From positions 106,082,001-106,146,000 of the forward strand of contig OX597818.1 in the NCBI GenBank assembly GCA_951406725.2: a stretch of DNA of 64,000 nucleotides. Direction: 5' to 3'. The notes beneath the pieces were generated by a model, which did no database searches, was not told where the DNA came from, and saw only the letters and a list, made by a program, of their open reading frames with translations. Source of the stretch: Octopus vulgaris. Taxonomy: Eukaryota. A program made the position numbers and the translations under genes. This document shows positions 30,491 to 61,074 of this stretch, piece by piece (within the stretch, counting starts at the first letter, position 1; every line of letters begins with the position of its first letter).

Positions 30491-30757
30491 TATACAACAG
30501 GTTTCTTTCATTTTCAATCTACCAAATCCACTCACAAGGTTTTGGTTGGCCCGAGGCTATAGTAAATATCACTGGCCCAAGGTACCATACAATGGGACTC
30601 AACTCGAATGTAATTTTCTACAAATAATTTTCAAATGATGTAGATAAAAAATGTACTGGAATTTGTTGGACAAAAATTTTTCAGACAAGGGAAGAGGAGT
30701 TTCAATCAATTCACACATCTTGACTTCTCATGTGTGATGAAAATATCTGATATATAC

Positions 30758-33700
30758 ATCAAATATTTTCATCAAACATTTTCAACAGATATTTTCATCA
30801 AACATTTACATCAAACATTTTCATCAATTATTTTAATCAAACATTTCATCATACACATTCATCAAACATTTTTCATCAGATATATTCCTCAAAAATTTTC
30901 ATCACACATTTTCATCAAATATTATATCACCCATTTTAATCAGGCATTTTCATCAAACATTTTCATCAGACATTTTCAGCAAACATTTTCATCAGACTTT
31001 TTCACCAAATATTTTCAAACATTTTCATCAAATATTTTCATCAGACATTTTCATTAGATATTTTCTTCAAGCATTTTCAGATATTTTCATCAGACATTTT
31101 TCAAAACATTTTTCATCAGACATTTTTATAAAATATTTTCATCAGACATAGATAATTTCATGAAACATCTCATACAAACGTTTTCATCAAATAATTTCAT
31201 CAAACATTTTTGTGAGACATTTTCATGAACATTTCTCATTGGATATTTTCATGAAACGTTTTCATCAAATATTTTCATCAAACATTTTTCATCAGACATT
31301 TTCATCAAGTATTTTCATCAAACATTTTCATCAGACATTTTCTTCAAACATTTTCATCAAACATTTTAATCAGACATTTTCATCAGACATTTTAATCAAA
31401 CATTTCATTAAACATTTTCATCAGATATTTTCATCAGACATTTTCATGAAACATTCCATCAAGCATTATCACACAACATTTTCATCAGACATTTTCATGA
31501 AACATTATTCATCAGACATTTTAATCAAACATTTTCATGAAAATCTTTCATCAAACATTCATCAGACATTTTCATCAAACATTTTCATCAAGTATTTTCA
31601 CCAAATATTTTTATCAGATATTTTAATCAAACATCTTCATTAGATATTTTAAACAGACATTTTCATCAAAGAGATTCTGAAAACAGACATTTTCATCAAA
31701 CATGTCCATCAAAAATTTACAGACATTTTCATGAAACATTTCCATCAAACATTTTCATGAGACATTTTCATGAACATTAGATATTTTTATCAAGAATTTT
31801 CATCAAACGTTTTCATCAAATATTTTCATCAAACATTTTAATCAAACATTTCATTAAACATTTTCATGAAACATTTTCCATCAGACATTTTCATGAAACA
31901 TTTCAACAAACATTTTCATCCGACATTTTCATCAAACATATTCATCAGACATTTTCATCAAACATATTCATCAGACATTTTCTTCAAACATTTTCACCAA
32001 ACATTTTTATCAGACACTTTCATCAAACATATTTCATCAAACATTTTCATCCAACATTTCAAAACATTTTCATCAGAACATTTCTCATTAGATATTTTCA
32101 TCAGACATTTTCATGAAACATTTCATCAAACGATTTCTGGAAGCATTTTCATCAAACATTTTCATCAGACATTTTCATTAGATATTTTCTTCAAACATTT
32201 TTATCAAAGATTTTCATGAAAAATTTTCATCAGACATTTAAAAAAAATTTTCATCAGACATTTTTACAAAATATTTTCATCAGACATTTTCATCATATAA
32301 TTTCATGAAACAATTCATCAAATATTTTCATCAAACATTTTCATCAGACATTTTCCTCAAACATTTTCATCAGACATTTAAAAAATTTTTTTTCATCAGA
32401 CAATTTTACAAAATATTTTCAGACATTTTCATCATATAATTTCATGAAACATTTCATCAAATAATTTTCAAACATTTTCATCAGTCATTTTCTTCAAACA
32501 TGTTCCTCAAACATTTTCATCAGACATTTTCATCACAATTTTTCATAAAATATTTTCAAACATTTTCATGAGACATTTTCATCAAACAATTTCATCAGAC
32601 ATTTTCATGAACATTTCTCAGATATTTTTATCAAGAATTTTCATCAGACATTTTCATGAAACATTTCATCAAACGTTTTCATCAAATATTTTCATCAAAT
32701 ATTTTCAAAAAAATTGTTCATGAAACATTTCATGAAACGTTTTCATCAAATATTTTCATCAAACATTTTCATCAGACATTTTCTTCAAACATGTTCCTCA
32801 AACATTTTCATCAGACATTTTCAGCAAACATTTTCATCACAATTTTTCATAAAATATTTTCATCAAACATTTTCATGAGACATTTTCATGAAACAATTTC
32901 ATCAGGCATTTTCATGAACATTTCTCTTTAGATATTTTTATCAAGAATTTTCATCAGACATTTTCATGAAACATTTCATCAAACGTTTTTATCAAACATC
33001 TTCATCAGACATTTTCTTCAAACATTTTCATCAAACATTTTCATCAGACATTTTCAAATATTTTCATCAAAAGTTTTTATCAAAGATTTTCATCAAACAC
33101 TTTCATCAGACATTTTCATCAAACATATTCATCAGACATTTTCATCAAATATGTTCATCAGACATTTTAATCAAACATTATAATCAGACATGTTCATAAA
33201 ACAATTTCATCACAATTTTTCATCAAATATTTTCATCAAACATTTTCAGACATTTTCATCAAACATGTTTCTCAAATATTTTCATCAGACATTTAAAAAA
33301 TTTTTTTTCATCAGACAATTTAAAAAAATTTTTTTCATCAGACAATTTTACAAAATATTTTCATCAGACATTTTCATCATATAATTCCATGAAACATTTC
33401 ATCAAATAATTTTCAAACATTTTCATCAGTCATTTTCTTCAAACATGTTCCTCAAACATTTTCATGAGACATTTTCATCACAATTTTTCATAAAATATTT
33501 TCATCAAACATTTTCATCAAACAATTTCATCAGACATTTTCATGAACATTTCTCAGATATTTTTATCAAGAATTTCCATCAGACATTTTCATGAAACATT
33601 TTCATGAAACATTTCATCAAACGTTTTCATCAAATATTTTCATCAAACATCTTCATCAGATATTTTCATCAAACATGTTCATCAGACATTTTAATCAAAC

Positions 33701-34319
33701 ATTATAATCAGACATGTTCATAAAACATTTTCATTACAATTTTTCATCAAACATTTTCATCAGACATTTTTCAAAACATTTTCATCAGACATGTTTATAA
33801 AATATTTTCATAAGACAGTCATTAAATATTTTCATGAAACATTTCATCAAACGTTTTCATCAAATAATTTCATCACACATTTTCATCCAACGTTTTCATC
33901 AGATAGTTTCAGACAATTTCATGAACATTTCTCATTAGATATTTTTATCAAGAATTTTCATCAGATATTTTCATGAAACATTTTCATGAATCATTTAGTC
34001 AAACGATTTCATCAAACATTTTCAGGAAACATTTTCATCAGACATTTTCTTCAAATATTTCCATCAAACTTTTTCCTCAGACATTTTCAGCAAACATTTT
34101 CATCACACGTTTTCATCAAACATTTTCATCAGACATTTTCATTAGATATTTTCTTCAAACATTTTCATCAGACATTTTAACCAAACATTTTCATCAGACA
34201 TTTTCATCAAACATTTTAATAAAACATTTTCATCAAACAATTTCAACAGACATTTTCATGAACATTTCTCATTAGATATTTTTATCAAGAATTTTAATCA
34301 GACATTTTCATGAAACATT
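30758..34319. repeat. 13-bp AT-rich satellite (CATTTTCATCARA)n with higher-order structure
   Basis: Direct reading, roughly 270 degenerate units. It generates all the KHFHQTFSS ORFs. Confidence 0.97.
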
Positions 34320-36378
34320 TAACCCTAACCCTAACCCTTACCTTAACCCTAATTTTAACACTAACCCTAACCATAATCCAAACCCTAACCCTAACTACTA
34401 ACCCTAAACCTAACCCTAACCCGAACCCTAACCCTAATTCTAACCCTAACCCGAAACCTAACAATAACCCTAACCCTAACCATAATCCTAACCCTAACCG
34501 TAACCGAAACCCTAACCCCAACCCTAAACCTAATCCAAACCCTAACCGTAACCCTAACCCTAATTGTAACCCTAAACCCTAACCCTCACCCTAAACCTAA
34601 CCCTATACCTAACCCTAAACCAAACCCTAACCCTAACACTCACCTTAACCCTAACCCGAACCCTAACCCTAACTTAACCCCTAATGCTAACACTAACCCT
34701 ATCCATAACCCTAAACCTAACCCCAACCCTAACTCTAAACCTAATTGTAACCTTAACCCTAACCTTAAATCTAACCGTAACCCTAAACCAAACCCTAACC
34801 CTAACCCTGACCCTAAACCTAACCCTGACCCTAAACCCTTACCCTAACGCTAACCCTAACCCTATTCCTAACCCTAACCCTAGCCCTAAACCTACCCCTA
34901 ACCCTACCCCTAAAGCCAGCCGTAGCCCTAGTTCTAGCCGTAGCCCTAGATCTAGCCCTAACCCTAGTTCTAGCCCTATCCCTAACGCTAACCCTACACC
35001 TAACCCTAACCATAACCCAATCCCAAACCCTAACCCTAATCCTAACCCTAAACCTAAGCCTAACACTAACCCTAAACCTAACCCTAACCCTAATGCTAAC
35101 CCTAACTCTAACCCTAGCCCTAAACCTACCCCTAAATCTAGCCATAGCCCTAGTTCTAGCCCTATCCCTAACCTCAACGCTAACCCCAACCTCAACCCTA
35201 ACCCTAACCCGAATCTTAACCGTAACCGTAACCCTAAACGTAACCATAACCCTAACCCTGACCCTAACCCTTACCCTAACCTTAACCCTAACCATAACCC
35301 TACACCTAACCCTAACCATAAGCCAAACCCTAACCCTAACCCCAACCTTAACCCTAAACCTAACCGTCACCAGAATCCAAACCCTAACCCTAGCGCTAAC
35401 CCTAACCCTAGCCCTAAACCTACCCTAACCCTCCCCTTAAAGCTAGCCCTAGCCCTAGTTCTAGCCCTATCCCTAGTTCTAGCCCTATCCCTAACCGTAA
35501 CCATAATACTAACCCTAACCCAAACCCTAGCCCTAGCCCTAGCTCTAACCCTAATCCTAACACTAACCCTAACCTTAACCCTAACCCTAACCCTAACCAT
35601 AAGCCAAACCCTAACCCTAACCGGAATCCAAATCCTAACCCTAATGCTAACACTAACCCTAGCCCTAAACCTACCCCTAAAGCTAGCCCTAGCCCTAACC
35701 CTAGTTCTAGCCCTATCCCTAGCCCTACACCTAACCCTAACTGTAACCATAATACTAACCCTACACCTAACCCTAACCCTAATCCTAACACTAACCCTAA
35801 TCCTAACCATAACCCTAACCCTACCCCTAAACCTAGCCCTAACCCTAACCCTAACCCCAACCTTAACCCTAAACTTAATTGTATCCCTAACCCTAACCCA
35901 AACCTTAACCCTAACCGTAGCCATAACCCTAAACCAAACCCTAACCCTAACCCTAAATCTAACTCTACCCCAACCCCTAACGCTAACCCTATCCATAACC
36001 CTAACCCTAACCCTGAACCTAACCCTAAAGCTTACCCTAACCCTAACCCTAACCCTAACCGTTACATTAACCCCAACCCTAAACCTAACCCTAACCCAAA
36101 ACCTAACCCTAACCTAAACCCTAACCCAATCCCTAATCCTAGCCCTAAACCTAACCCTAACCTATCCTGAAACCTAACCCTAACCCTATCCCTAAACCAA
36201 ACCGTAGCCCTAAACCTAACCCTAAACCTAATCTAACCCTAACCTTAACACTAACCCTAGCCCTAACGCTAACATTTAACCTAACCCCAACCCTAACCCT
36301 AAACCCAACCCAACCCTAACCCTTAACCCCAACCATAACCCCTAACCCCACCCTAACCCCTAACTCTAACTCTAGCCC
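34320..36378 (-). repeat. Interstitial degenerate telomeric array (TTAGGG)n on the minus strand
   Basis: Roughly 340 CCCTAA units with variants CCCTAG, CCGTAA, CCATAA, ACCTAA, TTCTAG. Confidence 0.97.
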
Positions 36379-37626
36379 AAAGATATCAAAGAGTGTGCCG
36401 AAAGAGATCAAAGAGTGTGCCGAAAGAGATAAAAGAGGGTGCCGAAAGAGATCAAAGAGGGTGCCAAAAGAGATCAAAGAGGGTGCCGAAAGAGATCAAA
36501 GAAGGTGCCGAAAGACATCAAAGAGAAGTCCCGAAAGAGATAAAAAAAGGTGCCGCAAGAGAGGAAAGAGATCAATATGGGTACCGAAAGAGATCAAAGA
36601 CGGTGCCGAAAAAGATAAAACAGGGTGCCAAAAGAGATAAAACAGGGTACCAAAAGAGATAAAAGAGGGTGCCGAAAGAAATCAAAGAGGAGTCCCGAAA
36701 GTGATAAAAGAGGGTGCCGAAAGAGATAAAAGAGGGTACCAAAAGAGATAAAAGAGGGTGCCGAAAGAGATCAAAGAGGAGTCCCGAAAGTGATAAAAGA
36801 GGGTGCCGAAAGAGATCAAAGCGGGTGCCGAAAGAGATCAAAGCGGGTTCCGAAAGACATCAAAGCGGGTGACGAAAGTCATCAAAGAAGGTACCGAAAG
36901 GGATCAAAGAAGGTGCCGTAAGACATCAAAGAGGATGCCGAAAGAGATAAAAGAGGAGTCCCGAAAGAGGCCGAAGAGTGTGCCGAAAGAGATCAAAGAG
37001 GGTGCCGAAAGAGATCAAAGAGGAGTCCCTAAAGAGATGAAAGAGGGTGCCGAATAAGATCAAAGAGGGTGCCGAAAGAGATCAAAGAGGAATCCCGTAA
37101 GAGAGCAAAGGGGGTCCTGAAAGAGATCAAAGAGGGTGCCGAAAAAGATCAGAGAGGGTGCCGAAAGAGATCAAAGAGGAGTCCCGAAAGAGATCAAAGA
37201 GGGTGCCGAAAGAGATCAAAGACGGTGCCGAAAGAGATCAAAGCGTGTCCCGAAAGAGATCAAACAGGAGTCCCGAAAGAGATCAAATTGGGTACCGAAA
37301 GAGATCGAAGAGTGTGCCGAAAGAGATCAAAGAGGAGTCCCCAAAGAGATCAAATAGGGTGCCGAATAAGATCAAAGAGGGTGCCGAAAGAGATCAAAGA
37401 GGAATCCCGTAAGAGAACAAAGGGGGTCCTGAAAGAGATCAAAGAGGGTCCCGAAAGAGATCAAAGAGTGTGCCGAAAGGGATCAAAGAGGAGTCCCGGA
37501 AGAGGTCAAAGAGGGTGCCGAAAGAGATCAAAGAGGGTGCCAAAAGAGATCAAAGAGGGTGCCGAAAGAAATCAAAGAGTGTGCCGAAAGTGATCACAGA
37601 GGGTGCCGAAGGAGATCAAAGAGGGT
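36379..37626. repeat. 22-bp purine-rich satellite (GAGGGTGCCGAAAGAGATCAAA)n
   Basis: Direct reading, roughly 57 units; bounded by CCCTAA repeats on both sides. Confidence 0.97.
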
Positions 37627-37645
37627 CCCTAAACCTAACCCTAAC
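37627..37645 (-). repeat. Short telomeric run
   Basis: ccctaaacctaaccctaac. Confidence 0.85.
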
Positions 37646-39477
37646 TACATACTAAAGGGAGATAACTACAAAATATCTTTTAGAGTTGCATATTACAATT
37701 TAATAATGTAACTCTAAAAAGGAAGACGCGACACATAACTACAAAATCCTCTAGAGTTACTTCACATCCATATAATTATTTTATCACTATTATTAAATTA
37801 TGACGATGGAAGTAAGTTTAGAAAGGCAAGGGAAGTAACCTTAGGAAGGGAGATAACTACAAAATCTTCCAGAGTTACTTCCCTTACATAAAATTACGAT
37901 ACGACTGTTATTAGATTGTAATAGAGAAGGGAAGTAACTCTATAATATAATACTCATGACGCATACACTTTTACTCTTTTCCTTGTTTAGTCATTTCACT
38001 GTGCCCATGCTGGAGCACAGCCTTTTCTAGAGCAAATAAACACCAGGACTTAATCTACGTCAGTCTAGTATTTATTCTGTTGGTCTTCTTTTCCCGAAAG
38101 GCTAAGTTAATGGAGTGTAAAAAACACCAGCATCGTTTGTCAAGCGGTTTTGGGGACACAGAAACATACATATAAATATCTATATGTATATACATATATG
38201 TCTCACTCTCTATATATATTTATATCTCTCTCTCTATATATATATCTATATCTATCTATTTCTATATCTATCTATCTATATATATATATATATCAATCTA
38301 TATACGACGGGCTACTTTCTGTTTCCGTGTACCAAATCTACTCAGAAACTTTGGTCCGTCCGAGGCTATATTGGAAGACACTTGGCCATGGGGCCACGTA
38401 GTTGGACTGAACCAGAAACCCCGTGATTGGAAAGCAAGCTACAGATGCAACCACCTTGGGTATGGGTGCACTGTGCTCACACACGTACAAACAGCCACAC
38501 GTCCGCACTCACGCATATAGATACATGCAAAGACGCAAACTCTTAGCTATTTATGTTTTAAATATGTTGACCTTAAAAATGCGACATTCTGAAAACATAG
38601 TATGAGTTTGTAGGTCAGCCGAAGAGTGTGTGAGCTTGTGCTTTCATTTCTGTCTGTGTGCGCGTGCGCATGTGTAATAGAGTGTTTCCAGTTCATACCT
38701 TTAAATGTGTGCTCGTGTAAAACTGTTTTAATTTCTGAGTGTATTTATGTGTGTGTGTGTGTATGTGTGTTTATTTCTGTGTGTGTTGTACATATATGTA
38801 TATATAAATATATAAGTACAAACACCCACACAGATTTTAAGACACTCACATACAGAACTATATATATATATACGTTAATACGCCTCTTTATCCATCGAAC
38901 ATAACGTGAAATCCGATGTTTGTGAGTTCACGTCCCCGTAACTTAGCGTTTCTGCAAAAGAGACCTATACATTAAGTACTACGCATACAAAGAATAAGTC
39001 CTGGGGTCGATTTCCTCCACTAATACACCACAATTTAATAACAATAATATAATAATATACAAGGTAAGTATATCTATATAATATTTTGTAGTTATCTCAC
39101 ACAAATATGTGGTTAACGAGAGATAGGGTAAGGGTTACTTGCATATTATATTTATTATGATTAAATTATCATAGGTAAGGGAATTAACTCTTGAAGATAT
39201 TTGGTATCATAATAAAGACGTGACACATACACTTTTTCGCTTTTCCGTGTTTTAGTCATTTGACTGTCACCATGCTGCAGCACCGCCTTTTCTAGAGCAA
39301 ATCGACACCAGGACTTATTCTTTGTAATTCTTTGTAAGCCCACTATTTATTCTATCGGTCTTCTTTTGCCGAACCGCTAACTTACGGTGACGTAAACACA
39401 CCAGAATCGGTTGTCAAGCGATTTTGAGGACACAAACGCAGACAGAAACATAGACACACACATACATATGTGTGTGC

Positions 39478-39522
<45 letters not shown>

Positions 39523-39652
39523 TACGAAGGGCTTCTTTCTGTTTTTTTCCCCACTGCCTGACATCTTGTGCAATTGTCTTCTACTATAGATCCGGACCGA
39601 ATAAAGCCTTGTGATTGGATTTGGTGGAAGGAAACTAAAATAATCCAGTCGT

Positions 39653-39728
<76 letters not shown>

Positions 39729-41914
39729 ATGTGTGTTTGTTCCCAAACATCGCTTCACAACTAATGCTAGTCTGTTTACGTCCCCGTAACTTAGAGGTTC
39801 ACAGAAAGAGACTGATAGAATAAGTACTAGGCCTACTAAGAATAAGTTCTGGGGTCGATATGCTCGGCTGAAGGTGGTGCTCAAACATGGCCACAGTCAA
39901 ATGACTGAAACAAGTAAAGGAGAGTAAAAGAGTAAATAGCGACAAAAGTCTATGACCTGTTCACTAGGGAGATAGCTGAAAATATCTCCTAGAGTTACTT
40001 CCCTAACATCATATAATACGTTTTATGTAATTTCTGTAATAGGTGTGTTCGCTTTACGCCTGCGAAAGGAGACACGACCATGCGCACACCAACAGACACA
40101 CATACACATGCAAGTAATCTGCTGGAACCTTTAACAAATAAGCATTGACTACCTAATCATTTACATTTCATTACACCCCACAAGTATATAAAGTAATAAT
40201 ATTATCTAGTACTACCATTCGGATATAATTAAGTTTCTTTTTTTGTTTTAGATAGTACATATACGTGTAGGTATATCTGTATGTGTATGTGTGTGTGTGT
40301 ATATATATATATAAAATTGTATATATACTGCTGGAGCACCGCCATTATTCGAGCACATTGTCCGCAGAACTTATTCTTTGTAAGCCTAGTATTTATTCTA
40401 ACTTATTCTTTTTTGCTGAACCGCTAAAACACAGGGAGGAAAACACACCAGCATCGGTTGAAAAATCTACAATAGCCCAGGGCCGACCAAAGCCTTGTGA
40501 TTGGATTTGGTAGATGGAAACTAAAAGAAGACTGTCATATATATATGTAACAGTAAGAGTGGCTGTGGTATGTGTGTTCCTTTTACGCCTGCGAAAGGGG
40601 ACAAGAGCATGCTGATCATTTACATTTCATTACACCCTATAAATATATAAAGTAATAATGTTTGTTGTAGCTGTAATTGTCGCACACACACAAACGAATA
40701 AAAACACACAGACGCTCACACAGAAATAAAAACATTCACGCAAACACAAACACTGAAATGAAAATACCAACACACACACAAATAAAAACAGTCCCACGCA
40801 CACAAACACTTAGAAAAAATACTCACACACAGAAATGAAAATACACAGCTACATACTACACTCAAACACGCGGACAAACACAGAAATGAAAACAGTTACA
40901 CGCACACACTCGAACACACAGAAAATAAAACACTCACACACACACATATAGAAATGAAAAATACAGTTACACATCCAAACACTCACACACTCACAAACAC
41001 ACACACACACAGAAATGAAAATAGTCACACACAAACATACGCACCCACACACAGAAATGAAACCACAGTTACACACTCACACATAAAACCCTAACCCTAA
41101 CTAGCACACACATACAATTTATTCAGAATAGAACAGGGCATTGGGTGCTTTGCACTCGCAGTTAGAATATCAGCCCCCTCCACGCCAGTATGAGAATTTC
41201 TTTTATCCACTTGTGAAATTAATACATTGTCGACATATGAGCAACATCTGAAGTCACTAAAGGTGCAATAAATTGAACTTATTTTGATTTAGTAGTTAGT
41301 GATCTGCAAATGCGGGTATCTTAGAAATGGTCAAAGTGTTTGTTGTAGTTGTAATTGTCGCGCACACACAAACAAATAAAAACACTCAGTCGTTCAAACA
41401 CGCGCGCACACACAAATAAAAACACTCTCACACACACAAACACTGAAATGAAAATACCCACACATACATTCACACACACTCATAAATAAAAATAGTCCCA
41501 CACACACAAGGAGACCCCATAGGTATATCAAAAAAGTTTCTAGTATCTTTCCTAGCCCATACTTTATTATGATAATTGAAGTTCTTATAATAAATAAGTA
41601 CCTACTAAATCAGTACAACCAACATTACGTCCCCGTAACTTATCGGTTCTGCAAAAGAGACCTATACATTAAGTAATATGCATACAAAGAATAATTCATG
41701 GGGTTGATTTGCTTGATTAGAGGCGGTGCTCCACCATGGCCACAGTGAAACAACTGAAAGAGTGTAACATCGAAAAAGTGTAAATTACGATAACTACATA
41801 CTTAAGGGAGATAACTACGGAAACTAAAAGAAGACTGTAGTATATATATGTAACAGTAAGAGTGGCTGTGGTATGTAGCTTGCTTTCCAACACACCAGCA
41901 TCGGTTGAAAAATC

Positions 41915-42167
41915 TAACCCTAACAACTACAGCCAATCGAAGATAATGACCAAACTGTCTACTCTTATCCACCACTTCCAACAAGATTTGACAAAAAATG
42001 AGACAAATTACTCGACTAGATTTGACTGCAAAGCCAATAACGTCTGTGGACTTCCCAAAATCTACAAAATGAGGCCAGAAACGTAGCCTTATAAACAAGT
42101 TAACTTCTATAGTCATAAATATTCCACACCCGAGAGATCTACGAATGAGACCAATCATGGCCGATCC
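41915..42167 (+). mobile_element. Penelope-like RT N-terminal fragment (partial second copy at 46003-46077)
   Basis: LTKNETNYSTRFDCKANNVCGLPKIYK and PRDLRMRPIMA resemble the PLE motifs FYGLPKIHK and LRPI. Confidence 0.75.
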
Positions 42168-42199
42168 AGGAATGTAGATACGGGGGGCATTGGGTGCTT

Positions 42200-42420
42200 A
42201 ACACTCGCAAATAGAATATCAGCCCTCTCCACGCCAGTATGAGAATTTCTTTTATCCACTTGTGAAATTAATACATTGTCGCCATATGATAAAAATATTA
42301 GCAATATCTGACGTCGCTAAAGGTGCAATAAATTGAACTTCTTTTCATTTAGTAGTTAGTGATCTGCAAATGTGGGTATATTAGAGATGCTTAAAGTGTT
42401 TGTTGTAGCTGTAATTGTCG
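42200..42420 (-). mobile_element. CR1-group LINE ORF2 C-terminal fragment (three local copies)
   Basis: Hand translation ILLIFLSYGDNVLISQVDKEILIL resembles the LLYGD...NK.I terminus of invertebrate CR1-group elements (recall). Confidence 0.45.
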
Positions 42421-43242
42421 CACACACACAAACGAAAAAAAACACGCAGTCGCTCAAACACACGACAGACACAGAAATAAAAACACTCACACACAAACAC
42501 TGAAATGAAAATACCCACACACACTCACATAGAAATGAAAATACACAGCTACACATTCACACACACACACATGCAGACAAACACAGAAAGGAAAACAGTT
42601 ACACACCTACACACGCACACACAAACGTACGCGCCCACACACAGAAATGAAAACAGTTACACACTCACACATAAAACCCTAACCCTAACTCGCACACACA
42701 TACAATTTCTTCAGAATGTAACGGTTTTAGGGTCAACATATATAAAGCATAAATAACTACAAATGTTCATCTTTGCATGTAACAGAGCGACAAAGTGTAT
42801 AGTACAACTACGTTTTCAAAGGAGATAACTACAAAATATCTCTAGAGTTACTTCCCTTGCATATTACAACTTAACAATAACTATAAAGCAAAGTAACTCT
42901 AGAAGATATTTTGAAATTATATCCCTTATAAATGTAGTTAGCGGGACATAACTACAACATATCTTCTACAGTTACTTTCCTTACATTTAAAGTATATTAT
43001 TACTATTATTAAATTCAGACGTGATACACTTTTACTCCTTTGACTGTGCCTATGCTGGAGCACAGCCTTTTCTAGAGCATATCGACACCAGGACTTATTC
43101 TTCGTAAGCCCACTATTTATTCTATTGGTCTCCTTTTGCCAAGTCGCAAACTTACGGTGACGTAAACACACCAGAATCGGTTGTCAAGCGATTTGGGGGA
43201 CACAAAAGCAGACAGATTAATACACACACACACACATATACA

Positions 43243-43296
<54 letters not shown>

Positions 43297-44617
43297 CATA
43301 TATACGACAAGCTTCTTTCTGTTTCCATGTATGGGTGAAACAGACTTTCGCGGTCGGTCACATTAGCCGATGAGACCACCTTGAGTATGTGTGGACTGTG
43401 CTCACACACGCACAAATACCCACACTTCCGCACTCATGCACATAGATACATGCAAAGACGCAAACTCGTAGCTATTTATGTTTCAAATATATTCATCTTA
43501 AAACCGTGACATTCTGAAGAAATGATATGAGTCTGTAGGTCAGCCAATATGTGTGTGTGTGTGTGTGCTTTCACTTCTATGTCTGTTTGCGCGCGCGTAT
43601 GTCTGTGGATTTTTGCTCACCAACAACAATGTACTGGGTTCAATCCAACAGCGTGGCACCTTCGGCAAGTGTATTCAAATATACCCCCGGGCCAACCAAA
43701 GTATTCTCAGTGGAGTTGGCAGAGGGAAACTGAAAGAAGCCCATCGTATATATGAATATCGGCGCAGGAATGGATATGTGGTAAGTAGTTTGCTTACGAA
43801 CCACATGGTTTCAGTTTCATTCCCACTGCCTCGCATCTTGTCCAACTGTCTTCTACTGTAGCTCCGGGCCGAAAAAATCCTTGTGATTGGATTTGGTGGA
43901 AGGAAACTAAAAGAATCCCGTCGTATATATGTTTAAATATATGTGTATGTGTGTGTGTTCGCACTCGAAGGGGACATGAGCATACACGCACGAACCATCA
44001 TACATAAAAATGCAAGTTCTCTTACAAGGGAAAGAACTCCCATTCTATCCCTTAAATTTTCCGAGATATATGAGTAAAATCCTTTCCTTTAACTAATTTT
44101 AGTATTATATATTTGTAAGGGAGCCAACTCTCCATACATCCCATAGAACCTATTATTATTGAAACACTAATTACGTTTCCTAATATTAAATTGTATTACT
44201 ATCAATAAAAGGACGTAACTCTTGTTATATGTGTAATTGTCGCACACACACAAACGAATAAAAACACAGTCGCTCACACACACGTACACACAAATAAGAA
44301 CATTCACACAAACACAAATTTAATAATAAACTAATATGGATGGGAAGTAACTCTAGAAGATATTTTGAAATTATATCCCTTAAATATGTAGTCAGCGGGA
44401 TATAACTACAACCTATCTTATACAGTTACTTTCCTTACATACAATTATATTATTAACGTAAGGGGTATTAGCCATCTGAATGTGGTTAGCCACTGGGGTG
44501 TTACTGATGCTTTTAGCCCCAGGCGATCAACGTCACCAGAAGGACTTTAGACACTATCTCAGTGCCCTTGTGTTATTTTCAAAGGGAGATCATCCTCCCT
44601 CGAAGACCCGAGTACTA

Positions 44618-44662
44618 CATACGGACTATAGTTTCAAGGTAATTGCCTCTCGTCAACGCATG
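44618..44662 (-). ncRNA. Minimal type I hammerhead ribozyme motif (mirror copy)
   Basis: Reverse complement of 44820-44864. Confidence 0.8.
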
Positions 44663-44819
44663 GCAAGCACCGGTCTTCGATGAAGGAGTCCCCTTGCAAA
44701 TAATATATAACGTTTTTCATTGTTTTCAGACAGTTTTTCTACATCAGTGACAGTGGTTACTGTGAAAAACGTTATATATTATTTGCAAGGGGACTCCTTC
44801 ATCGAAGACCGGTGCTTAC

Positions 44820-44864
44820 CATGCGTTGACGAGAGGCAATTACCTTGAAACTATAGTCCGTATG
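44820..44864 (+). ncRNA. Minimal type I hammerhead ribozyme motif (C3U variant)
   Basis: CATGCG-TTGACGA-GAGG caatta CCTT-GAAA-CTATAG-TC^-CGTATG; palindromic stem III ACTATAGT, GUC triplet. Confidence 0.8.
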
Positions 44865-47800
44865 TAGTACTCGGGTCTTCGAGGGAGGATGACCTCCCTT
44901 TGCAAATAACACAAGGGCACTGAGATAGTGTCTAAAGTCCTTCTGGTGACGTTGATCGCCTAGGGCTAAAAGCATCAGTAACCCCCCCCCCAGTGGCTAG
45001 CCACATTCAGATGGCTAATACCCCTTACGTTGTCGAGCGGTTATTGTTTATATCTCGTTCAGAGATTTATTATTGTTTTAATTATATTATTACTATTATT
45101 AAATTTAGACGTGACACACTTTTACTCGTTTTATTTATTTGACTGTGCCCATGCTGGAGCACAGCCTTTTCTAGAGCATATCGACACCAGGACTTATTCT
45201 TTATAAGCCCACTACTTATTCTATCGGTCTTCTTTTGCCGAACCGCTAATTACGGTGACGTAAACGCACCAGAATCGGTTGTGAAGCGAATAATGGGACA
45301 CAGAAACGTACACACATATATATTTAAATTTCTATATGTATATACATATATCTATCTATCTATATGTATATATATATATATATATCTTTATCTATAAATA
45401 TACCTGTATATACATCTACCTATATATATCTATATCTCTCTCTCTATATATATCTATATATCTCTACCAATCTATATACGACGGGCTACTTTCTGTTTCC
45501 GTGTACCAAATCTACTCAGTAACTTCGGTCTACCCGAGGCTATGTTAGAAGACACTTGCCCAAGGGGCCACGCAGTTGGACTGGAGCATAAACCCCGTGG
45601 TTGGAAAGCAAGCTAAATACCACGGCCACTCTTAATGCTATATATATACCAGGACTTATTCTTTGTAAGCCCACTATTTATTCTATCGGTCTTCTTTTGC
45701 CGAATCGCCAACGTACGGTGACGTAAACACACCAGCATCGGTTGTGAAGCGATTTTGGGGACACAAAAGCAGACAGATAAATACACAAACACATACATGT
45801 GTGTATATATATATATATATTCATATATACGACAAGCTTCTTTACTGTTTCCGCGTACCAAATCCACTCACAAAGCTTTGGTCTGTCCGAGGCTATAGTA
45901 GAACACTTGACATTAGTGCCACGTAGTGGGACTGAACCAGAAACCATGTCTTTGGTAAGCAATATACTTACCGCAAAGCACTCATACGGGTATATATTTT
46001 CACAAACAAGTTAATTTCTATAGTCATAAATATTGCACATCCGAGAGATCTCCGAATGAGACCAATCATGGCCGATCCAGTTATGTAGATACGGGGGGCA
46101 TTGGGTGCTTAACACTCGCAAATAGACTATCAGCCCCCTCCACGCCAGTATGAGAATTTCTTTTATCCACTTGTGAAATTAATACATTGTCGCCATATGA
46201 TAAAAATATTAGCAACATCTGAAGTCACTAAAGGTGCAATAAATTGAACTTCTTTTCATTTAGTAGCTAGTGATTTGAAAATGTGGGTATCTTGGAGTTG
46301 GTTAAAATGTTTGTTGTAGCTGTAATTGTCGCACCCACACAAACAAATAAAAACACTCAGTCGCTCACACACGTACACACAGAAATAAAAACTCTCTCAC
46401 ATACACACTGAAATGAAAATACCCACACACACAAACACTGAAAAAAATACACACTCACATACGCCCAAACACACACACACATAGAAATGAAAATACACAG
46501 CTACACATACAAACACTCACACACACGGACAAACACAGAAATGAAAACACAGTTACACACCTACACACACACACACTCGAACACACAGAAATGAAAACAC
46601 TCACTCACACAGGCACAAACACACACACACATAGAAATGAAAACTTAGCAACCACATGGCTTTGGTTATGTCCCACTACGTGGCACTTTGGGCAAGTGAC
46701 TTCTAATATAGCCTCGGACAGACAAAAGTTTCTGAGTGGGTTTGGTACATGGAAATAGAAAGAAGCCCGTAGAATATATGAATATATATATATGTATTTA
46801 TGTTTCTGTGTCCCCAAAACCGCTTCACAACTGATGCTGGTGTTTACGCTCCCGAAAATTGCGGTTCGGCAAAGAGGACAAATGTCTTGCAAACAACTTG
46901 CACAAGCAAGTGCTACCAGTTAAAAGCTCCGTATATCGGAAGCTAGCAAGTGTATGGGGTCATCAGGAGAGAATGCGCGCCGTTTCGGGGCCTACCTCCC
47001 GACGGCATCAATGCGCACCGAACCACCTCACTGATATGAGGCTCCGCTTGCTAGATCAGCTGGTTATGAAGAACTCAATATACTTCTAGCCATCGCTCGT
47101 CGTCTCTTTTTAACCTATAGAATAAGTCCTGGTGTCGATTAGCTCGACAAAAGGCGGTGCTCCAGCATGGGCACAGTCAACTGACACAAACAAGGAAAAG
47201 AGTAATTGTGAACGTGTCACCTCTTAAATATACAAAATACCTTGTAGAGTTACATCTCTTGCAAATTATACTTGAATGATATTACTAATATAGTCATATG
47301 CAAGGGAAATAACTCTAGAGTGCATACTGCACTTATCTCCCGTTAACTACATATTTCAGAGGTATAACTACAAATTATATTCTTGAGTTAGTTCCCTTGC
47401 ATATTCATTATTTAAATTATTATTTGTAATGGAATTAACTCTAGAATATATTTCATATTTATCTCCCCTAAATATGTAGTTATCGTAATATATACTTTGT
47501 CGCTTTGTTACATTCTTTCAGTTATTTCACTGCGGCCATGCTGGAGCACCGCCTTTAGTCGAGTAAATCAACCCCAGGACTTATTCTATAGGTCTCTTTT
47601 GCAGAACCGCTAAGGTAAGGTGACGTTATGTTCGATGGATAAACAGACATGTTAACGTGTATATGTATATACGTAGAAACACGATACACACAGATTTTAA
47701 AACTCACACACGCATACATACACACAGTTACACAGTCACGCACCGCAATGAAAACACACATCAAGTATTCATGTATATAAATATATATATGCATCTTGTA

Positions 47801-48559
47801 TATATACATATATATATATTTGTAATTATATATAAAACTTAGATATGTTTGTGTGTGTGCTCTCATTTCTGTGTCTGTGCGCGCGCACCTGTGTGACAGA
47901 GTGTTTCCAGTTCACTGTTGGTGTCTGAGCGTTTGTGTTTGTGTGTGTGAGTGAGTGAGTGTGTGCATGTGTGTTTTCATTTCTAGGTGTGTGAGTTTGT
48001 AAATGTGTGTTTTCACTTCTGTGTGTGCGCGCATCCGTTTGTTTGTGAGTGTGTTGACTAATAAAAATAAGAAATAAGTGTAAATGTTTACCGGTGAGTG
48101 TGTTAAATAATAAGGCACTAAAAGAGAATGACCCTTCCCAGACACAACAGAATATGCTTCAACACACGAACTCATATAAAGAATCTTGCAAACTAAATCC
48201 AAAAACGAAATATAGTGTTTATTCCGTTGACAAATTTAAGGGAGATAACTGGAAAACCTCTTCTACAGTTACTTTCCTTGAATATTATAATAAAGACTTG
48301 TTTCATTCTTTTGACTGTGCCCATGCTTGAGCACCACCTTTTATCGAGCAAATCGACCCCAGGACATATTCTGTGTAAGCTTAATATTTATTTTATCGGT
48401 CTTCTTTTCCGAACCGCTAAGTTATGGTGACGTAAACACACCAGCATCGGTTGTCAAGATGTACTGTGAATGATGGTTAACAATAGAAGAACGAATTATA
48501 TGATGCTTTCCGTGGTTATATTTTTCCTATTGTAGTAGATGAGGCATGATCGCACAAGA

Positions 48560-48795
48560 CATTAACCTTAGCCCTCATCCCTGCTTTTCAATGCTAAACC
48601 CGATATAAAACAGTGATCAACACTCGAAATAAACCTGTTCAATCTCTACCCTCCTCATCACCCAAAATCCTAACCCCTAGTTCAAACTTTGATCTCTTAC
48701 CTGACTATTCTCTCTAAAAACCCTTCACAAACCCCCAAGCTAACCCTAATATAGACTAAACTCTGAAAACCAATCCTAACAGCAAACCCACACCA
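48560..48795 (-). repeat. Heavily decayed telomere-like tract
   Basis: Scattered aaccttagccctc, cctaacccctag, ctaaccctaa, aatcctaac with C/A skew. Confidence 0.5.
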
Positions 48796-49477
48796 AAATA
48801 AGAAAAACCACTTACCTTTGGCCATTTGGGATCTATAATACAAGGCATGATATGCAAACAAGCAAAATATCAACCAACATTTGAAAGTCAAGTTTTCTCT
48901 ATGTGTCGAATCATGAAATACACTTGTTTAATAAATACGGTTGTCCTTACATTTACACAGTACATTGCTTCCACAAGTCATCAAACTAATCATTCTCATG
49001 CGAAATGAAATTGATGTTTTTATTTATAATATAAACAAATTAATTATTGAAATTAATATAAGACATATAATTAACGTGTATGTATGTCATCATCATTTAA
49101 CATTCGATTTTCATGTTGTCATGGGTTGGATTATTTCACACTATCTGAGATGAATTACAACACGTACCTCTAATGTCTGTTTTCACATGGTTTCTATGTC
49201 TGAGAAATGTTTTGGTAACACTGACACAAGTAAAATTAAAAAGTAAATTTCAAGGATGAGTGAATTGCTAGTAGTGAGGGCGGTGGCTTCATCCTAAGCT
49301 GTAGTATGATAGAGAGACAGGCAGAGGTGTGTTGCTGTAGAGAAAGTACATGGTTACCCTGCATATATGTATGTATATAGGTAGACATCGATTAGAGCGC
49401 TTTCTCATTGCTAATATGTTAACATATGCTTGATGTGTGCTTTAAAAATAAAGTGCTTGCACTGGCACTAATTTCTT

Positions 49478-49630
49478 CAGATGATGAAAATCACGGAAAA
49501 GACTTAATCTAGATGAGATGCAATTTGGTTTTGTATCAGGAAGAAACACCAGTCATGATATATTTCTGGTAAGAAACCCCCAGAAGTACCTAACCAAGTA
49601 TAAACCACTGTACTTGACTTTTGTTGGTAT
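49478..49630 (+). mobile_element. RTE RT fragment
   Basis: LDEMQFGFVSGRNTSHDIFLVR...KYLTKYKPLYLTFV. Confidence 0.8.
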
Positions 49631-49714
49631 CATGATTCCACTTTCTACAGTAAATAGAGTAATTTTTCAATTCACTAAACAGGAAAGTAGTCCATATCAC
49701 CTTACCCAGGTAGA

Positions 49715-50613
49715 CTAAGGCCCTCTGACAGAACACTTTGCTTTCTTAAGAGAAGTGTGTAAGATAATCCTCATTGCAAGGCCTCCAATATAGCAGAATA
49801 AGTTGATGTCAGTCCCAGAATAGCTGTCAGTTATCTCTGCAAAATTGGCTATTATGGCAGAGCAGCAAGAAAGAAGACACTGCTTTGACCAGCCAATATC
49901 AAATGGAGAAAAGATTAGACAAGTGAGATGGTAGGGAGGTCACTAGCACTTTGGGACACTGTCAAATTCTCTGATGAATCCAGATTTGCTGTATTTTCTG
50001 ACACTGGTCGAGTGTGGGTCTGGAGAATCAGTCACCAATATTTTCATGTGAATATATTGCAGCCAACATTGAAACATGTGATGGTCTGGAGAGCAATTTG
50101 GAGCAATGGTCAATCAGAAATGGTGGAGTGTGAGGGATACATAAACTCAGATAAATATGTGTCCATATTATAGAAAAATCTTCTTCCTATATCCTCCAGT
50201 GGTAAAATAATTAAAGAACACTATTTATGGAAGATAGGGCTTTCTTGCACAACTAAAAGACCCAGGATTGGTTGGAAGAGAATGGCATTAAAAAGCTTCC
50301 ATAGCTAAGCCAATCACCAGATATGAACCCTACTGAACACCTCTGAGGCATGATGGATGGGACATTTCCTAAAAAGAAAAAGAAAGCATCCTTACAGCCA
50401 GATCTTTTGATATTACTGCAAGAAACTTGGCAAGAAAATCATGAAGAGAATATTCATCAGATCAGTAGCATGCCTGATAGGGTCATTGCATTCAAAAATG
50501 CAAAGGAGCCTGTCTACTAAATATTAGATATTCACGTTATAATAATTAATAAATAACTTAGATAAATTTTAACAATTATAAGGATGTCTATTTAATTCTG
50601 TCATGTCCATGTA
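49715..50613 (+). mobile_element. Tc1 (DD34E-type) transposase remnant
   Basis: GRAARKK, WDTVKFSDESRF, RVWVWR, VMVW, LFMED, SQSPDMNPTEHL motifs with stops. Confidence 0.9.
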
Positions 50614-50929
50614 GTTTTTGAAGCAAAACACAATGGAAACATTCACAGGAAAATTAGTATTAAGACCTTTTCAAAAATCTCTCTCAAGCTTTTCATGCAC
50701 ACTAAGATTTTATTGACATTCATTCAAATTCACTCATTCCAACATGAACCAATTTTTTCCATCAAAAACTTTGTGATGTTTTCACTTTCTCTAATTTGAT
50801 CTAGATCCTCTAAGTGTCTCTAATGCATTCATGCCTTAATTTCAATTTGTTGCCTAGATTTTTCCTCAGGGCCAACTCACCAAACAGAAATTAATGAGAG
50901 ACCTAATTGCCTTTCATCTTGACCACATA

Positions 50930-51540
50930 AATACTCCCACATATTTGGTGCTCAAATACAGCATGCTCCCCACTAGGAGATTGACAGTTACCCAGTATAT
51001 GCAAAAATCAAACATCATACATTTGCAGTACTAACAAGCCATTACTATTGCATTTTCTAGCTTCATGTTTCCCAATCATATCCCAAAATTTTTTATCTCT
51101 GCAAATGCTTTCATTGAAATCACCAAGTATGAAGATTTTATAAGCAGAAAGAACACTGCACAGAAGCTTTTTTTCATGAAAGATAGAATATTAGTCTTTT
51201 TTTTCTCTTCAGAGGAACACATGGTTGGAGGGTAGACACTTACTAAGGTAACAAATCTCTTGTTTGACAATGGCATTCTCACTGACATCAAGGTAATCAG
51301 TAAATCCAAAGAGAAATCTCTCACAGTGTAGAAACTATGAAATTTTTGAACTTCTTTTTTCAAACATTGCACTGTCTACTATCCTCACCACCCAATGAAA
51401 CATATAGCCACCACAATGTATGGTGAAGTGACCCTCATTTTAGACAATAACATTATGTCTATGTTATATCACTGCAGCTCCTATGATTCAAAAACTGATC
51501 CTCTTTCAGGGAAAGTTGAAGAGGATTCATAATGTGAGAT
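50930..51540 (-). mobile_element. RTE/BovB-like APE endonuclease remnant (different subfamily)
   Basis: LMSVRMPLSNKRFVTLVSVYPPTMCSSEEKK and YNIDIMLLS. Confidence 0.75.
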
Positions 51541-53629
51541 GCATTTGTTGGTCCCTACCTATAGTCGAAGACTCTTGCCCAAACTGCCACACAATAGAAC
51601 TAGACCCCAAACCATGGCATTGGGAAACAAACATATTTTACATTTGCAAACATATATGTCTTATAGAAATTGTTCAATATACACAGAGAAACAGGTGTTC
51701 AATTTACAAACAGCTATGGTTAACTAACAGAAAACTTAATAAATTAACAAAAACATTATGTACTCGCGTGTGAAGCTTCGCATGGGGCTACTTTTTTGGT
51801 AAATTCCACATGTATAAACTGTTGTGATGAGAGTCATTTACACCCCTACGGGACTGAAAGAATGGACTAGCAAAACTCTTATAAAAAAATATTGTATTGG
51901 TTGAGATAAAGAGAGTCATAAGAGTCACTGGGAGTTCATGGAAGTTGTTGACGTTGTTCAGAGTTTGTATTTATTGGAGTATTGTGTTTAGTGGAGTAAT
52001 CTGAAGTAGGTTGTGTGAAGACAGTTGTGTCTATCCCTGCTTCGTGAAATTTGCATATCCAACATATAGAAGGATATAAAATAAACAAAAGTTCGCATGT
52101 AAACCAATAAGTGTAATCATTCATTTTTTAACCCTGAAAGTAAAAATGAAAAACATCCTAATAGTAGCGAAAGGAAAATTTTGGCTTTAATATCAGTTCA
52201 CTACTCTTTACTTGAAGTGACAAGCAGCCAAGTATTATACAAATGGAAACTTTTACATGTCTCAAGAAAGATATAAATGCAAGCAATGTGAGACCAACTT
52301 TCATTAAAACTACACAAGAAATTCATCAAAATTCATTCACAGATTTTATTCTATTAAATTTAAGATGGTGGAGAGGCACAATTGTTAGAGTGTTGGCAAA
52401 ATACCTTCCAATATTTCTACCAGCTCTTTATATTCTAGTTTCAAATCCTGTTAAGGCTAACTTTGTTTCTCCTCCTTTCATGGTTGATAAAAAAAGTGCA
52501 AGTCAAGTAATAAAATCAATTTAATCAATTAACCACTTCCTCTAAAATTTGAGGCATTCCACTGTTTTACAAACAAACATAACCAATTAATCAAATGTCT
52601 TTGGAAAAATAAATCTGCTTGTTAGGAAACAGGATAGCTTTCCTGTCATTCAAATATTCGTGAAATTTACAATATATCATAATTTCAGCAATTAACATAG
52701 TCATATTGTAGGAGATTTCATCACCATTTCACTAAAGAAGCATGCAGTAATATAGAAAAAGATATTGCCAAATCAGCTTTCCATATGAAAACTTTCATTA
52801 ATTAAGAAATCTTAACCATAACCAATATTTTTTATGCTATTTCATCAATGAGCAACAAATAAGGCAGAGTTTAAATCCATGCTTCCTTCTCCAGTTTATC
52901 ATATGCCTCTCAATCCATTCAACCATTTATTGAAAGGTCAATAATCACCAGTTTATGTTCAATGATTCCAAACAGAAATTATCTGTGTGCTTGTATGTGA
53001 GTGCCTGAGCAAGTGCATGTATATCTCTCTTGAGAACAATAGATTTCGTTGGTGGTACCTGTTATCTCAATTCTAACTTTTGGTGGCTGAGAAGAGGTCA
53101 GGAGGGTCAAGTGACAAAGATATTATTCTGCTTAGATAAGGACTCTGGTAAATTTAACTGCTGTCACTCACAGAAAAACTATTGTTTTAGCGTGAGAAAA
53201 GTGCTGTTGAACTGTTAAGTGAAATTTGGTGATCAACAATCAAATCCACGCCATGCCTGCATGAAACCACTTAATCACCTATGTCTATCCCTCTATTCAT
53301 AATCTAACCCAGTGCTACTCAACCATTTCTCACCTATGAACCACCTTAATCTCTGTTTTGCTCAGGAGGGCTCTCATAGCCAATCAGTGTTTTAAAAATT
53401 CATTATTATATTTTTATAATTGCATTTATTAGTAATTTTAAAAAGAGCTACTGAAATATTTTGTATGACACAGAAGTATAAAAAATGTTATCAACATAAT
53501 TTTTCACAACAACCCATTTTATAGACCCCCAAAGGTCAAATGGACCTCATTTGAAAAGAACTGCTTTAATTACTCATCACCTGGCACAAATCCATTTCAC
53601 TCAGTGTTACTCCCCACTCAGTTGAAGTA

Positions 53630-54170
53630 TCTTGTCTTGCAAGTTTCTTGGTAATTTCACTGCTGGTGCCACATGCAAAGCACTCAGTAGGGTACACACT
53701 ATAAAGTGCTTGGAATCAGGAATGGTAGAAACCATGCCAAGGCAGACAATAGAGCTTAGCACAGTGTTCTGAATTTGCAGCTCCTGTCAAACAGTCTATC
53801 CCTTTCCAGCATGGAAGGCAGACGTTAAATGATGATATTGATACTACAGACCATACTCATAGATATGGTGGTTTTTGAGGAAGCTAAATATAGACAAATA
53901 GTTTTTGAAATCTGCACAGGCTATGTACAAGGGTACTATCAGTAACAAGACATTTCACCATGAGTACAATGACAAATTTAGTGTACAGGTAGGTATTCAA
54001 CAGGGCTCGGCTCTCAGCCTCATCTCATTCATCATCATTCTGCAGGTCATGACAGAGGACTTCAAAACTGCCTGCCCTAAGAGCTAATATATGCTGATGG
54101 TCTCACTCCAGTAGTTGAATCTATAACACAGTGCAAAAGAAATTCCAGGTGCGGAAGCAAAACGGAACTA
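53630..54170 (+). mobile_element. RTE 3' tail followed by RTE RT fragment
   Basis: Tail ending gacgttaaatgatgat (~53835); VQVGIQQGSALSLISFIIILQ and YAD motif. Confidence 0.8.
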
Positions 54171-54499
54171 AGCAAGAAAATTAAAAAAAGATGCTACACC
54201 ATGCAGGTTAAAACGCTAAGTGCAAATAGTGCAGATATTAATTCCTTAACACAAGACGTGCAGGTCAATCACAAAAAATAGACAAGATGAGTGATGAGTA
54301 GCAATGAACAACGTAAGTATCTATCTATCGAGCAGTCTATCTTTCTAGATGTTTGATAATCGGTATGTCTATTCTTCTTCTGACTCCATCTATTTCTGTC
54401 GAATTATTTATCTATGTTACAATCTGCTTTTCTCTCTCTCTCTCCATATACATACATATATATATATATATATATGTATAGAAATTAAATATAAATTAT

Positions 54500-54800
54500 A
54501 AATTACAAAGTGGGACAAGAACGCAAAAACACACAAAGAGACGACACAAAAAAAAAAACAGACAGGTCACTCGAAGCCTCTAATTTTCAGTCGGGAACCG
54601 GATCATTTTAGCAATTTCGGCTGTTTAATCTCGATATCGCTCCGATCCGGCCAGCCCCCAAGAAAAACTAAGCCACGGGCATTAGATTTCTTGGAAAGAG
54701 GATCGAATGTATACGAAACAAGGACAGGATGCCACACGAATATAAATACAAGAAACAAAGAATAGAAATAAAAAACAAGAATAGTAAACAGGACAAAAAC
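54500..54800. repeat. Interspersed repeat, same family as the 56396-56629 foldback (possibly Penelope-like)
   Basis: gggacaagaacgcaaaa...cgaagcc...ttcagtc...accggatcat...tttcggctg shared with 56410-56517. Confidence 0.7.
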
Positions 54801-55306
54801 AATATATATATTTATATATATCTTAGCCTATCACTATTTCTATCTATCAACGTTTTTATATACTTACACAAGTTACGAAATATCACTAGGGGCAATTTTC
54901 GCCATGTCAAAGTAAATAAATCCAAAAGTAATTAACTTACGTTCGTATATTGAGTATAGAAAATAACCTTCTTTTCCAGAAACTAAATATTAAAACAACC
55001 GAGTAACTTTCCTTCAATTTTTCCAGCGACTTTCATTTAAATATGGCGCTTCGATTAATTATTGATTGCAATTTCTACGTCATATTACTTTCGTATTCGT
55101 ATCACACGAAATAACTGAATTAAGATTTATTAACAGGGAATAAAACCAGCAAAAAATATTTTAAGCTGTTTTTTATTCAACTTTATTCAAACTTGAATTA
55201 TATTCGCTTTGTAATCCGCTAATCATTGCTGTCTTAATTGTAGACGCGTTGTTTCGTATTAGGCAGAATACATATATCGTTATTTTCGTACTCTATACAA
55301 AATATG

Positions 55307-55361
<55 letters not shown>

Positions 55362-55705
55362 AAAGAAACTATTGATAGGATATTATAATTCATAACAGTC
55401 TTTCCTGATGAGCTAAAATTTAACCACGGTTCCTGGTCACTTTTCATCAAACAGACACATGATCAAAGGAATTCTGTATCCGTTTAACGGTATCATGCGC
55501 ACATTATAAACACAGCAACCATTGACTCCTTACATCTCTTCATTATATATATAATTGTATCTTTTTGTATACACACATACTACAATGAGGAAAGCGGGAA
55601 CAGTTAACAACACTAACAAAAAAAAAAAAACACCTTATATATCTCCCTAACAAGTGTGCTATATCTTCACGTCTGTTTTTTTAAACCTTTGTACTACGGT
55701 ACGGA

Positions 55706-56395: not shown

Positions 56396-56629
56396 AAAAA
56401 AATACAAACTGGAACAAGAACGCAAAACATTTAGAAGACGACACAAAAAACACAGACGGGACATTCGAAGCCTTCAATCTTCAGTCAAGAACCGGATCAT
56501 CCTCGCAGTTTCGGCTGTGCGAGGATGATCCACTTCTTGATTGAAGATTGAAGGCTTCGAATGTCCTGTCCGTGTTTTTTGTATTGTCTTCTAAATGTTT
56601 TGCGTTCTTGTCCCAGTTTGTATTTTTTT
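56396..56629. repeat. Foldback: ~112-bp inverted arms, 10-nt loop
   Basis: Arms 56396-56507 and 56518-56629 are reverse complements with about ten mismatches. Confidence 0.93.
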
Positions 56630-59808: not shown

Positions 59809-59858
<50 letters not shown>

Positions 59859-61060: not shown

Positions 61061-61074
61061 AATTAGGAATGTAA

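Follow-up and report, generated by a model that had tools for sequence, protein, structure and literature searches.

The window, a stretch of 64,000 nucleotides of Octopus vulgaris DNA, corresponds to C5:106,082,001-106,146,000, on a contig of 147.5 Mb whose nearer end is 41 Mb off. From left to right, it contains satellite A, a TAACCC array, satellite B, a 16-bp TAACCC tail and a subtelomeric block. Satellite A (30757..34320, plus strand) consists, according to TRF, of 277 copies of the 13-bp unit CATCAAACATTTT and belongs to a family dispersed as islands. At the left edge of this island is a short fold-back (30730..30779), i.e., an inverted copy of the 13-bp unit, recognised as an opposite-strand self-match; a contig from sequencing run X1 covers 30609-30785 without any difference and continues 28 bases past 30757, the rule for a bridged joint being 31 bases. 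The degenerate TAACCC array (34320..36378, plus strand; TRF and unit counts) has its G-rich strand on the minus strand, pointing left. Satellite B (36375..37633, plus strand; TRF), with the 22-bp unit GAAAGAGATCAAAGAGGGTGCC, is another dispersed island family and splits the TAACCC tract. The 16-bp tail that follows (37630..37645, plus strand) was recognised by comparison with paralogous copies of the S repeat and is likely to be the root of a former telomere. The distal part of the subtelomeric block (37642..48500, plus strand), delimited by its coverage by copies at contig ends, comprises the S repeat (units GGGAGATAACTAC and GGAAGTAACTCTAG) and associated segments. The proximal part (48570..56056, plus strand), delimited by alignment to contig ends, is collinear with the end copies and carries an insertion of about 1.3 kb at 52936-54238.

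There are no N letters in the 204 kb around the locus (-70 to +134 kb). The left flank had no cover in three raw-read runs, of which about 3% of the reads were sampled. The locus is inert repeat DNA, and no function is proposed for it. No host gene spanning the site was found among 274 of the 320 non-repeat frames between -30 and +94 kb and 15 others, a search by frame that misses short exons; the frames searched gave transposon domains and repeat artefacts only. Remnants of LINEs with reverse-transcriptase and endonuclease domains occur at 907-10446 and 58100-61600, and a CCCH zinc-finger match directly before an endonuclease-like frame looks by eye like a LINE ORF1. There are also large inverted repeats at 44455-45031 (92% arm identity), 56396-56629 (90%) and 59965-60451 (77%), which are likely fold-back elements. 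A coding role for the TAACCC array was considered and rejected: its open frames of 479 and 248 amino acids give only sub-threshold, low-complexity Pfam matches.

The subtelomeric block

The telomere repeat of octopus is TTAGGG, according to a second-hand report (PMC6160780). The S repeat is present at the C22 start, C13 start, C10 end, C13 end and C22 end, and TAACCC directly abuts it at four ends (C22 start, C13 start, C10 end and C22 end). In the window, the region from 37.7 to 52.9 kb is largely covered by copies from contig ends, and the match to the C11 end runs to 56,056. In the distal block, 50-90% of most kilobases is covered by end copies, and the order is scrambled by inverted and direct duplications. 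The proximal block is collinear with the C13 start (93, 96 and 88% over 1.1, 1.7 and 1.4 kb, respectively) and its order is kept at the C22, C10, C5 and C11 ends and at the C9 start.

The distribution of the block was followed with a 600-bp marker, for which 40 of 1167 candidates were scored, leaving 37 once the window and two small contigs were set aside. Twelve of these 37 lie within 400 kb of a contig end (about 0.9% expected), and 11 of the 12 have the polarity of the window, with the telomere to the left. The remaining 25 copies are internal; several of them adjoin N gaps or telomeres with miscalls. None of seven block segments occurred in any of the 64 control stretches (640 kb). Twelve unselected contig-end stretches contained no TTAGGG array, and only one of them contained two block segments; thus, the assembly is not end-to-end. 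The block is absent to the left of the array as far as -70 kb and, on the other side, from 56 kb to +134 kb. As the left flank is free of any block, the tail marks the true outer edge of the block; near 56 kb the block fades, at the place where the end copies also become end-specific. The right flank, of about 18 kb, is the shared subtelomeric sequence of this genome, in telomere polarity. The duplications that the first-pass annotation described as subtelomere-like are indeed subtelomeric, but the array does not touch them, as satellite B (36375-37633) and the tail (37630-37645) lie between.

Subtelomeres elsewhere in the genome carry satellites of their own, one built on a 15-bp unit, AATTACCTGCCCCTG, that extends over as much as 17 kb and one on a 34-bp unit; the subtelomeres also contain short TAACCC tracts in their interior. 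The presence of these tracts and satellites in subtelomeres suggests repeated burial of old tips. About 7 kb inward of C11:99.97 Mb, and thus close to a contig end, there is an 84-bp tandem array, which by eye resembles coding sequence for C2H2 zinc fingers.

Probable live telomeres and scaffolding errors

Nanopore sequencing is described as miscalling telomere repeats as CCCTGG and TTAAAA (PMC9414165). Runs of CCTGG (on the C-rich strand) lie beyond three of the four end arrays that abut S, and runs of TTTTAA lie at two internal sites; arrays with such runs are read as live telomeres. Six internal sites consist of the block and indel-type TTAGGG, beyond which there is either an N gap or runs of CCTGG or TTTTAA: C5:55.05, C7:59.57-59.59, C19:34.91, C24:16.74, C27:22.58 and C30:9.02 Mb. 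These are probably live chromosome ends misplaced inside scaffolds. The locus in the window does not show these features. At C15:59.81 Mb and C31:9.87 Mb, internal blocks end in short TTAGGG that is joined without a gap to unrelated DNA; these are candidates for further buried ends or for chimeras. At C5:0.21-0.22 Mb, a near-pure TTAGGG array points inward, is followed by an N gap and has its root in non-S DNA; this may be a terminal contig in flipped orientation whose end was healed.

The TAACCC array

According to TRF, the 6-bp array at 34320-36378 contains 343 copies with 73% matches. Its plus strand has 128 CCCTAA and 0 TTAGGG; 118 of the 343 units are exactly TAACCC, none is in the opposite orientation, and the longest pure run is 3 units. 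This is far above chance, since the remaining 61.9 kb of the window contain just 20 CCCTAA. Thus, the one-way, degenerate array of about 2 kb noticed at first is real and, as was also stated then, there is no head-to-head TTAGGG/CCCTAA junction. The supposed uniformity of its decay did not hold: the middle is rich in TAGCCC and TAGTTC, and there are internal exact duplications of 37, 34 and 33 bp, as against 20-26 bp in 15 shuffles of the units. Five copies of a 23-base variant block lie in the array and three, with one mismatch, elsewhere in the genome. These exact duplications and the recurring variant block imply that the array was re-amplified after its variants arose.

The array diverges from TAACCC by 0.147 substitutions per base and 0.03 indels per unit. 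The cosine of its variant spectrum is 0.62-0.81 to five arrays associated with satellite B and 0.09-0.34 to seven arrays abutting S, the latter being indel-rich, with 40-86% exact units. The two words left by miscalling are practically missing from it (0 CCTGG, 1 TTTTAA). It fits a dispersed class of degenerate TAACCC satellites, which are rich in substitutions and poor in indels (TAGCCC, TAAACC, TAACAC), locally re-amplified, and in contact with satellite B. The 2-kb array therefore resembles dispersed TAACCC satellites, not terminal arrays. It has been seen as a telomere that merely decayed, a view that its amplified variant blocks and its match to the dispersed class do not support; moreover, the degeneration of the array, at 15% from TAACCC, exceeds the divergence of the block and is not explained by point decay once the end was buried.

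Satellites A and B elsewhere in the genome

The abrupt stop of the array at the 13-bp satellite lies where it had been placed, with the joint gaaacatt/taaccc at 34320, and a 27-base pattern across this joint was found once in the genome. Satellite A has matches on at least nine contigs, with several islands per contig (among the 150 of 513 matches listed). Since its islands are dispersed, the fact that satellite A touches the array says little in favour of a fusion. All 18 stretches selected for satellite A were free of a TAACCC array.

For satellite B, the 150 matches listed, out of 523, place it on at least 15 contigs. In 28 loci selected for it, it adjoins many other satellites, and in four of the 28 it is touched, in the same orientation, by a degenerate TAACCC array, some of these arrays extending past the end of the stretch examined. 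A search with the junction pattern added one TAACCC/B locus (C7:76.4 Mb), and the pair of TAACCC and 22-bp satellite recurs at five other loci. The register of the TAACCC/B joint is common to three loci (C9:114.6, C6:102.9 and C7:76.4 Mb), and that of the B/TAACCC joint to three (the window, C9:114.6 and C9:35.7 Mb). A paralog of the window module, at C9:114.63-114.64 Mb, has 4.8 kb of TAACCC, 4.1 kb of satellite B, a 90-bp tail and the private joint with S, followed by unrelated DNA.

The satellites with 9-, 12-, 13-, 26-, 34- and 59-bp units are among those that satellite B adjoins, often with fold-back inversions, and its own unit contains ATCAAAG, which we take to be a TCF/LEF-like word. 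A TAACCC/TAGCCC satellite at C7:109.340-109.356 Mb extends over at least 16 kb, has 40-45% exact units and is without S at the end examined. A transposon-borne cassette with fixed termini was rejected for satellite B overall, as the flanks of 20 B arrays have no end in common. The sharing of 40-mers among B arrays singled out neither a parent nor a daughter array. It is conceivable, though we consider it unlikely, that TAACCC-B-TAACCC cassettes were exported from this former end to at least five other sites after satellite B had split the tract; one of these sites would still carry about 230 bp of S with the private joint. If true, many of the kilobase-scale interstitial telomere-like arrays in this genome would be satellite mosaics spread from one buried end, and not scars of rearrangement.

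The joint between the tail and the S repeat

The last four bases of the tail, TAAC (37642-37645), are in register with the S repeat. In paralogous copies of S, 35 of 44 read ...GA-TAAC-TAC, whereas the window reads ...CCC-TAAC-TAC. Arrays that meet S elsewhere do so by two types of junction; the window matches neither, its block being cut inside an internal S copy. The joint is private to the window and C9:114.64 Mb, where there are about 230 bp of S and the two differ at 14 of 175 aligned bases. In-register overlap of 1-5 nt is reported to favour healing by telomerase, an overlap of at least 4 arising by chance in at most 0.39% of cases (PMC2246262); short overlaps are also left by end-joining or telomere capture (PMC11293586). 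The TAAC overlap is within the range for a telomerase-healed end; it is a single joint, and is also compatible with end-joining.

The succession of satellite B, tail and S is bridged by short contigs derived from reads of two runs. In run X2, a contig of 412 bases spans 37571-37889 without any difference, although the run may stem from the same source DNA. In run X3, which carries the label of another species, a contig covers 37570-37848 with 4 gap letters but no substitution. None of the listed pieces of run X19 crosses the tail, and run X20 covers the S side only.

Divergence and age of the block

In three proximal segments, the window differs by 2.5, 3.7 and 4.6% from the nearest sampled copy, as compared with medians of 1.4, 1.4 and 3.2% among the copies themselves; the last proximal segment is 9.1% from the nearest copy, for which one copy was available. 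In six distal segments, the window is 6.2-9.4% from the nearest copy, and the copies differ from one another by medians of 5-17%, with minima of 0-1.7%. The block in the window is thus an outlier to the end copies, i.e., not simply a misplaced live end. Thirty chromosomes are common to octopus lineages that split about 44 My ago, the fusions being placed in their common ancestor (PMC10700109; PMC9795677). A search of the literature for a neutral substitution rate in octopus returned none. To accumulate only 2.5-9% over 44 My, rates several-fold to tenfold below the usual animal neutral rates would be needed. At the usual rates, the block would not reach back beyond the split of Octopus and Amphioctopus (about 44 My), as a scar of an ancestral octopod fusion would. 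With 2.5-9% to the end copies, it is too young for fusions that are more than 44 My old; the buried end is likely to be far too young for a scar of the ancient chromosome fusions of octopuses, and the relevance to octopod fusions first suggested for the locus is not supported.

Origin of the locus

The readings taken together, there is very probably DNA derived from a chromosome end truly inside a chromosome here. The first-pass annotation had proposed an internalised end, and the subtelomeric block, the telomere polarity and the outlier divergence support it. How the end came to lie inside is a question on which our confidence is lower. The account we tentatively prefer, with not quite even confidence, is a young end that was internalised by rearrangement, e.g., a translocation or inversion, one of whose breaks fell within the telomere tract. 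Megabase inversions between octopus species have been reported (PMC10700109). The end would first have been cut short by a break inside an internal S copy and healed by the addition of TTAGGG (re-capping by telomerase). Satellite B would then have entered the TAACCC tract, 16 bp from its root. The outer tract, having lost its terminal position and no longer being renewed by telomerase, could next have mutated and been re-amplified locally, as have other satellites of this genome. A near-blunt joining, with one shared base, may have linked the tract to DNA that bore satellite A or gained it later, and the buried block would have ceased to exchange with live ends. This order of steps is the simplest.

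Several findings count against a rearrangement. In the 150 kb at the right end of C5, no satellite A was found and the left flank is matched by common repeats only, which leaves no reciprocal breakpoint there; C9:114.64 Mb carries the joint of satellite B, tail and S between unrelated flanks, which means that pieces of the module get copied without rearrangement; and at four loci satellite B touches TAACCC where there is no subtelomere. In addition, the distance to the ends is 2.5-4.6% for the proximal block and 6-9% for the distal one, and the history was therefore not one event.

An ectopic copy is possible but less probable: a terminal piece of 20-25 kb (TAACCC, B, tail and block) would have been copied, by break-induced replication or via a DNA circle, into a break in internal DNA, with chromosome order unchanged. 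C9:114.64 Mb would be an example of this on a small scale, with the same joint, and the blocks at C15:59.81 and C31:9.87 Mb, which end in short TTAGGG fused to unrelated DNA, resemble what is expected, as does the absence of a reciprocal breakpoint from the 150 kb at the right end of C5. Across the two flanks, however, neither a target duplication nor a split repeat was seen, and the block fades near 56 kb as a native end would.

A mis-join of the assembly at A/TAACCC or TAACCC/B, linking an end-like piece to internal DNA, is improbable. Both of these joints are within repeats, and the assembly appears to have put live ends inside scaffolds at the six internal sites described above. Against this are the lack of N letters from -70 to +134 kb, the 0 CCTGG and 1 TTTTAA of the array, the absence of pure telomere (the longest run is 3-4 units), the outlying position of the block relative to live ends, and the occurrence of the joint of satellite B, tail and S in independent contigs.

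Quite improbable is the landing of a satellite mosaic (A-TAACCC-B-TAACCC), by microhomology, at the edge of an internal subtelomeric copy, the TAACCC never having been the telomere of that copy. Satellite A, satellite B and the degenerate TAACCC class are each found dispersed through the genome and in free combination, and the registers of the joints are common to loci without S, as such a landing would have it. Yet the island would have had to end in TAACCC, which is seen beside satellite B in four of the 28 loci selected for B, and to arrive with telomere polarity, in register, at the exact outer edge of the block, leaving no block remnant on the other side. A scar of the ancestral fusions behind the 30-chromosome octopod karyotype is extremely improbable: the layout is like that of the head-to-tail fusion sites of muntjac, a one-way TTAGGG block against a satellite (PMC2760882), but the 30 chromosomes are common to lineages that split about 44 My ago, a divergence of 2.5-9% is too little, and satellite A is dispersed.

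Significance

On the favoured reading or on that of an ectopic copy, the locus is a datable and testable marker of a recent rearrangement or duplication involving a chromosome end, in a group with a stable chromosome number. It has no bearing on the ancient fusions between squid and octopus. It also carries a warning: long internal TTAGGG arrays in this genome cannot be taken for fusion scars, as the majority either go along with satellites or have the look of live ends that were misplaced. By-products are a shared subtelomeric block of 20-30 kb, which marks chromosome ends, and the flagging of about six likely scaffolding errors. In the literature searched, which left aside subscription papers and supplements (the latter may hold telomere maps), no description of octopus subtelomeres or interstitial telomeric sequences (ITS) was found.

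Comparison with known systems

The Indian muntjac sites IMFS1-7 (PMC2760882) have one-way (TTAGGG)n without a head-to-head junction, which abuts a different satellite and is accompanied by duplications and by DNA derived from chromosome ends. Here, likewise, a one-way block lies against a satellite, and the telomeric side is chromosome-end sequence, as judged by paralogy with contig ends. In muntjac, the satellite is centromeric satellite I, the blocks are 168-837 bp and the break in synteny was shown (PMC2760882), whereas the cap in the window is a dispersed 13-bp island family and the tract is 2 kb and split by a second satellite. In telomere-spanning arm fusions, the order is internal DNA, (CCCTAA)n, subtelomere, as it is here; a healed end is later joined to an internal site, with 0-3 nt of microhomology at the joints (PMC11293586). 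Those fusions are mostly somatic, come from human cancer, have fresh repeats and are proven by long reads (PMC11293586), whereas the locus in the window is old, common to a run with the label of another species, and reshaped by satellites.

Short ITS inserted by telomerase, and healed ends, are similar in that the root of the tract has 4 nucleotides in register; short ITS lie in ordinary DNA, comprise 2-25 units and have an orthologous site that is empty (PMC2246262), whereas the tract in the window tips a subtelomeric block. Amplified satellite-like or subtelomeric ITS, and the mosaic ITR of Arabidopsis, share with the window degenerate repeats amplified in place and the mixing of telomere-like repeats with other satellites (PMC6410037; 10.64898/2026.05.10.723265); the window differs from them in showing no sign of a centromeric origin and in that the arrays are of kilobases, not megabases, one of them being on a real subtelomere. 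The human head-to-head ITS at 2q13 also has degenerate internal TTAGGG beside subtelomeric duplications (PMC6410037), but the window has no inverted second array (0 TTAGGG on the plus strand) and no subtelomere on the left (no block as far as -70 kb). The locus is accordingly classed no further than as an interstitial telomeric sequence that has subtelomere beside it (PMC6410037), its likeness to the muntjac sites and to arm fusions being one of layout.
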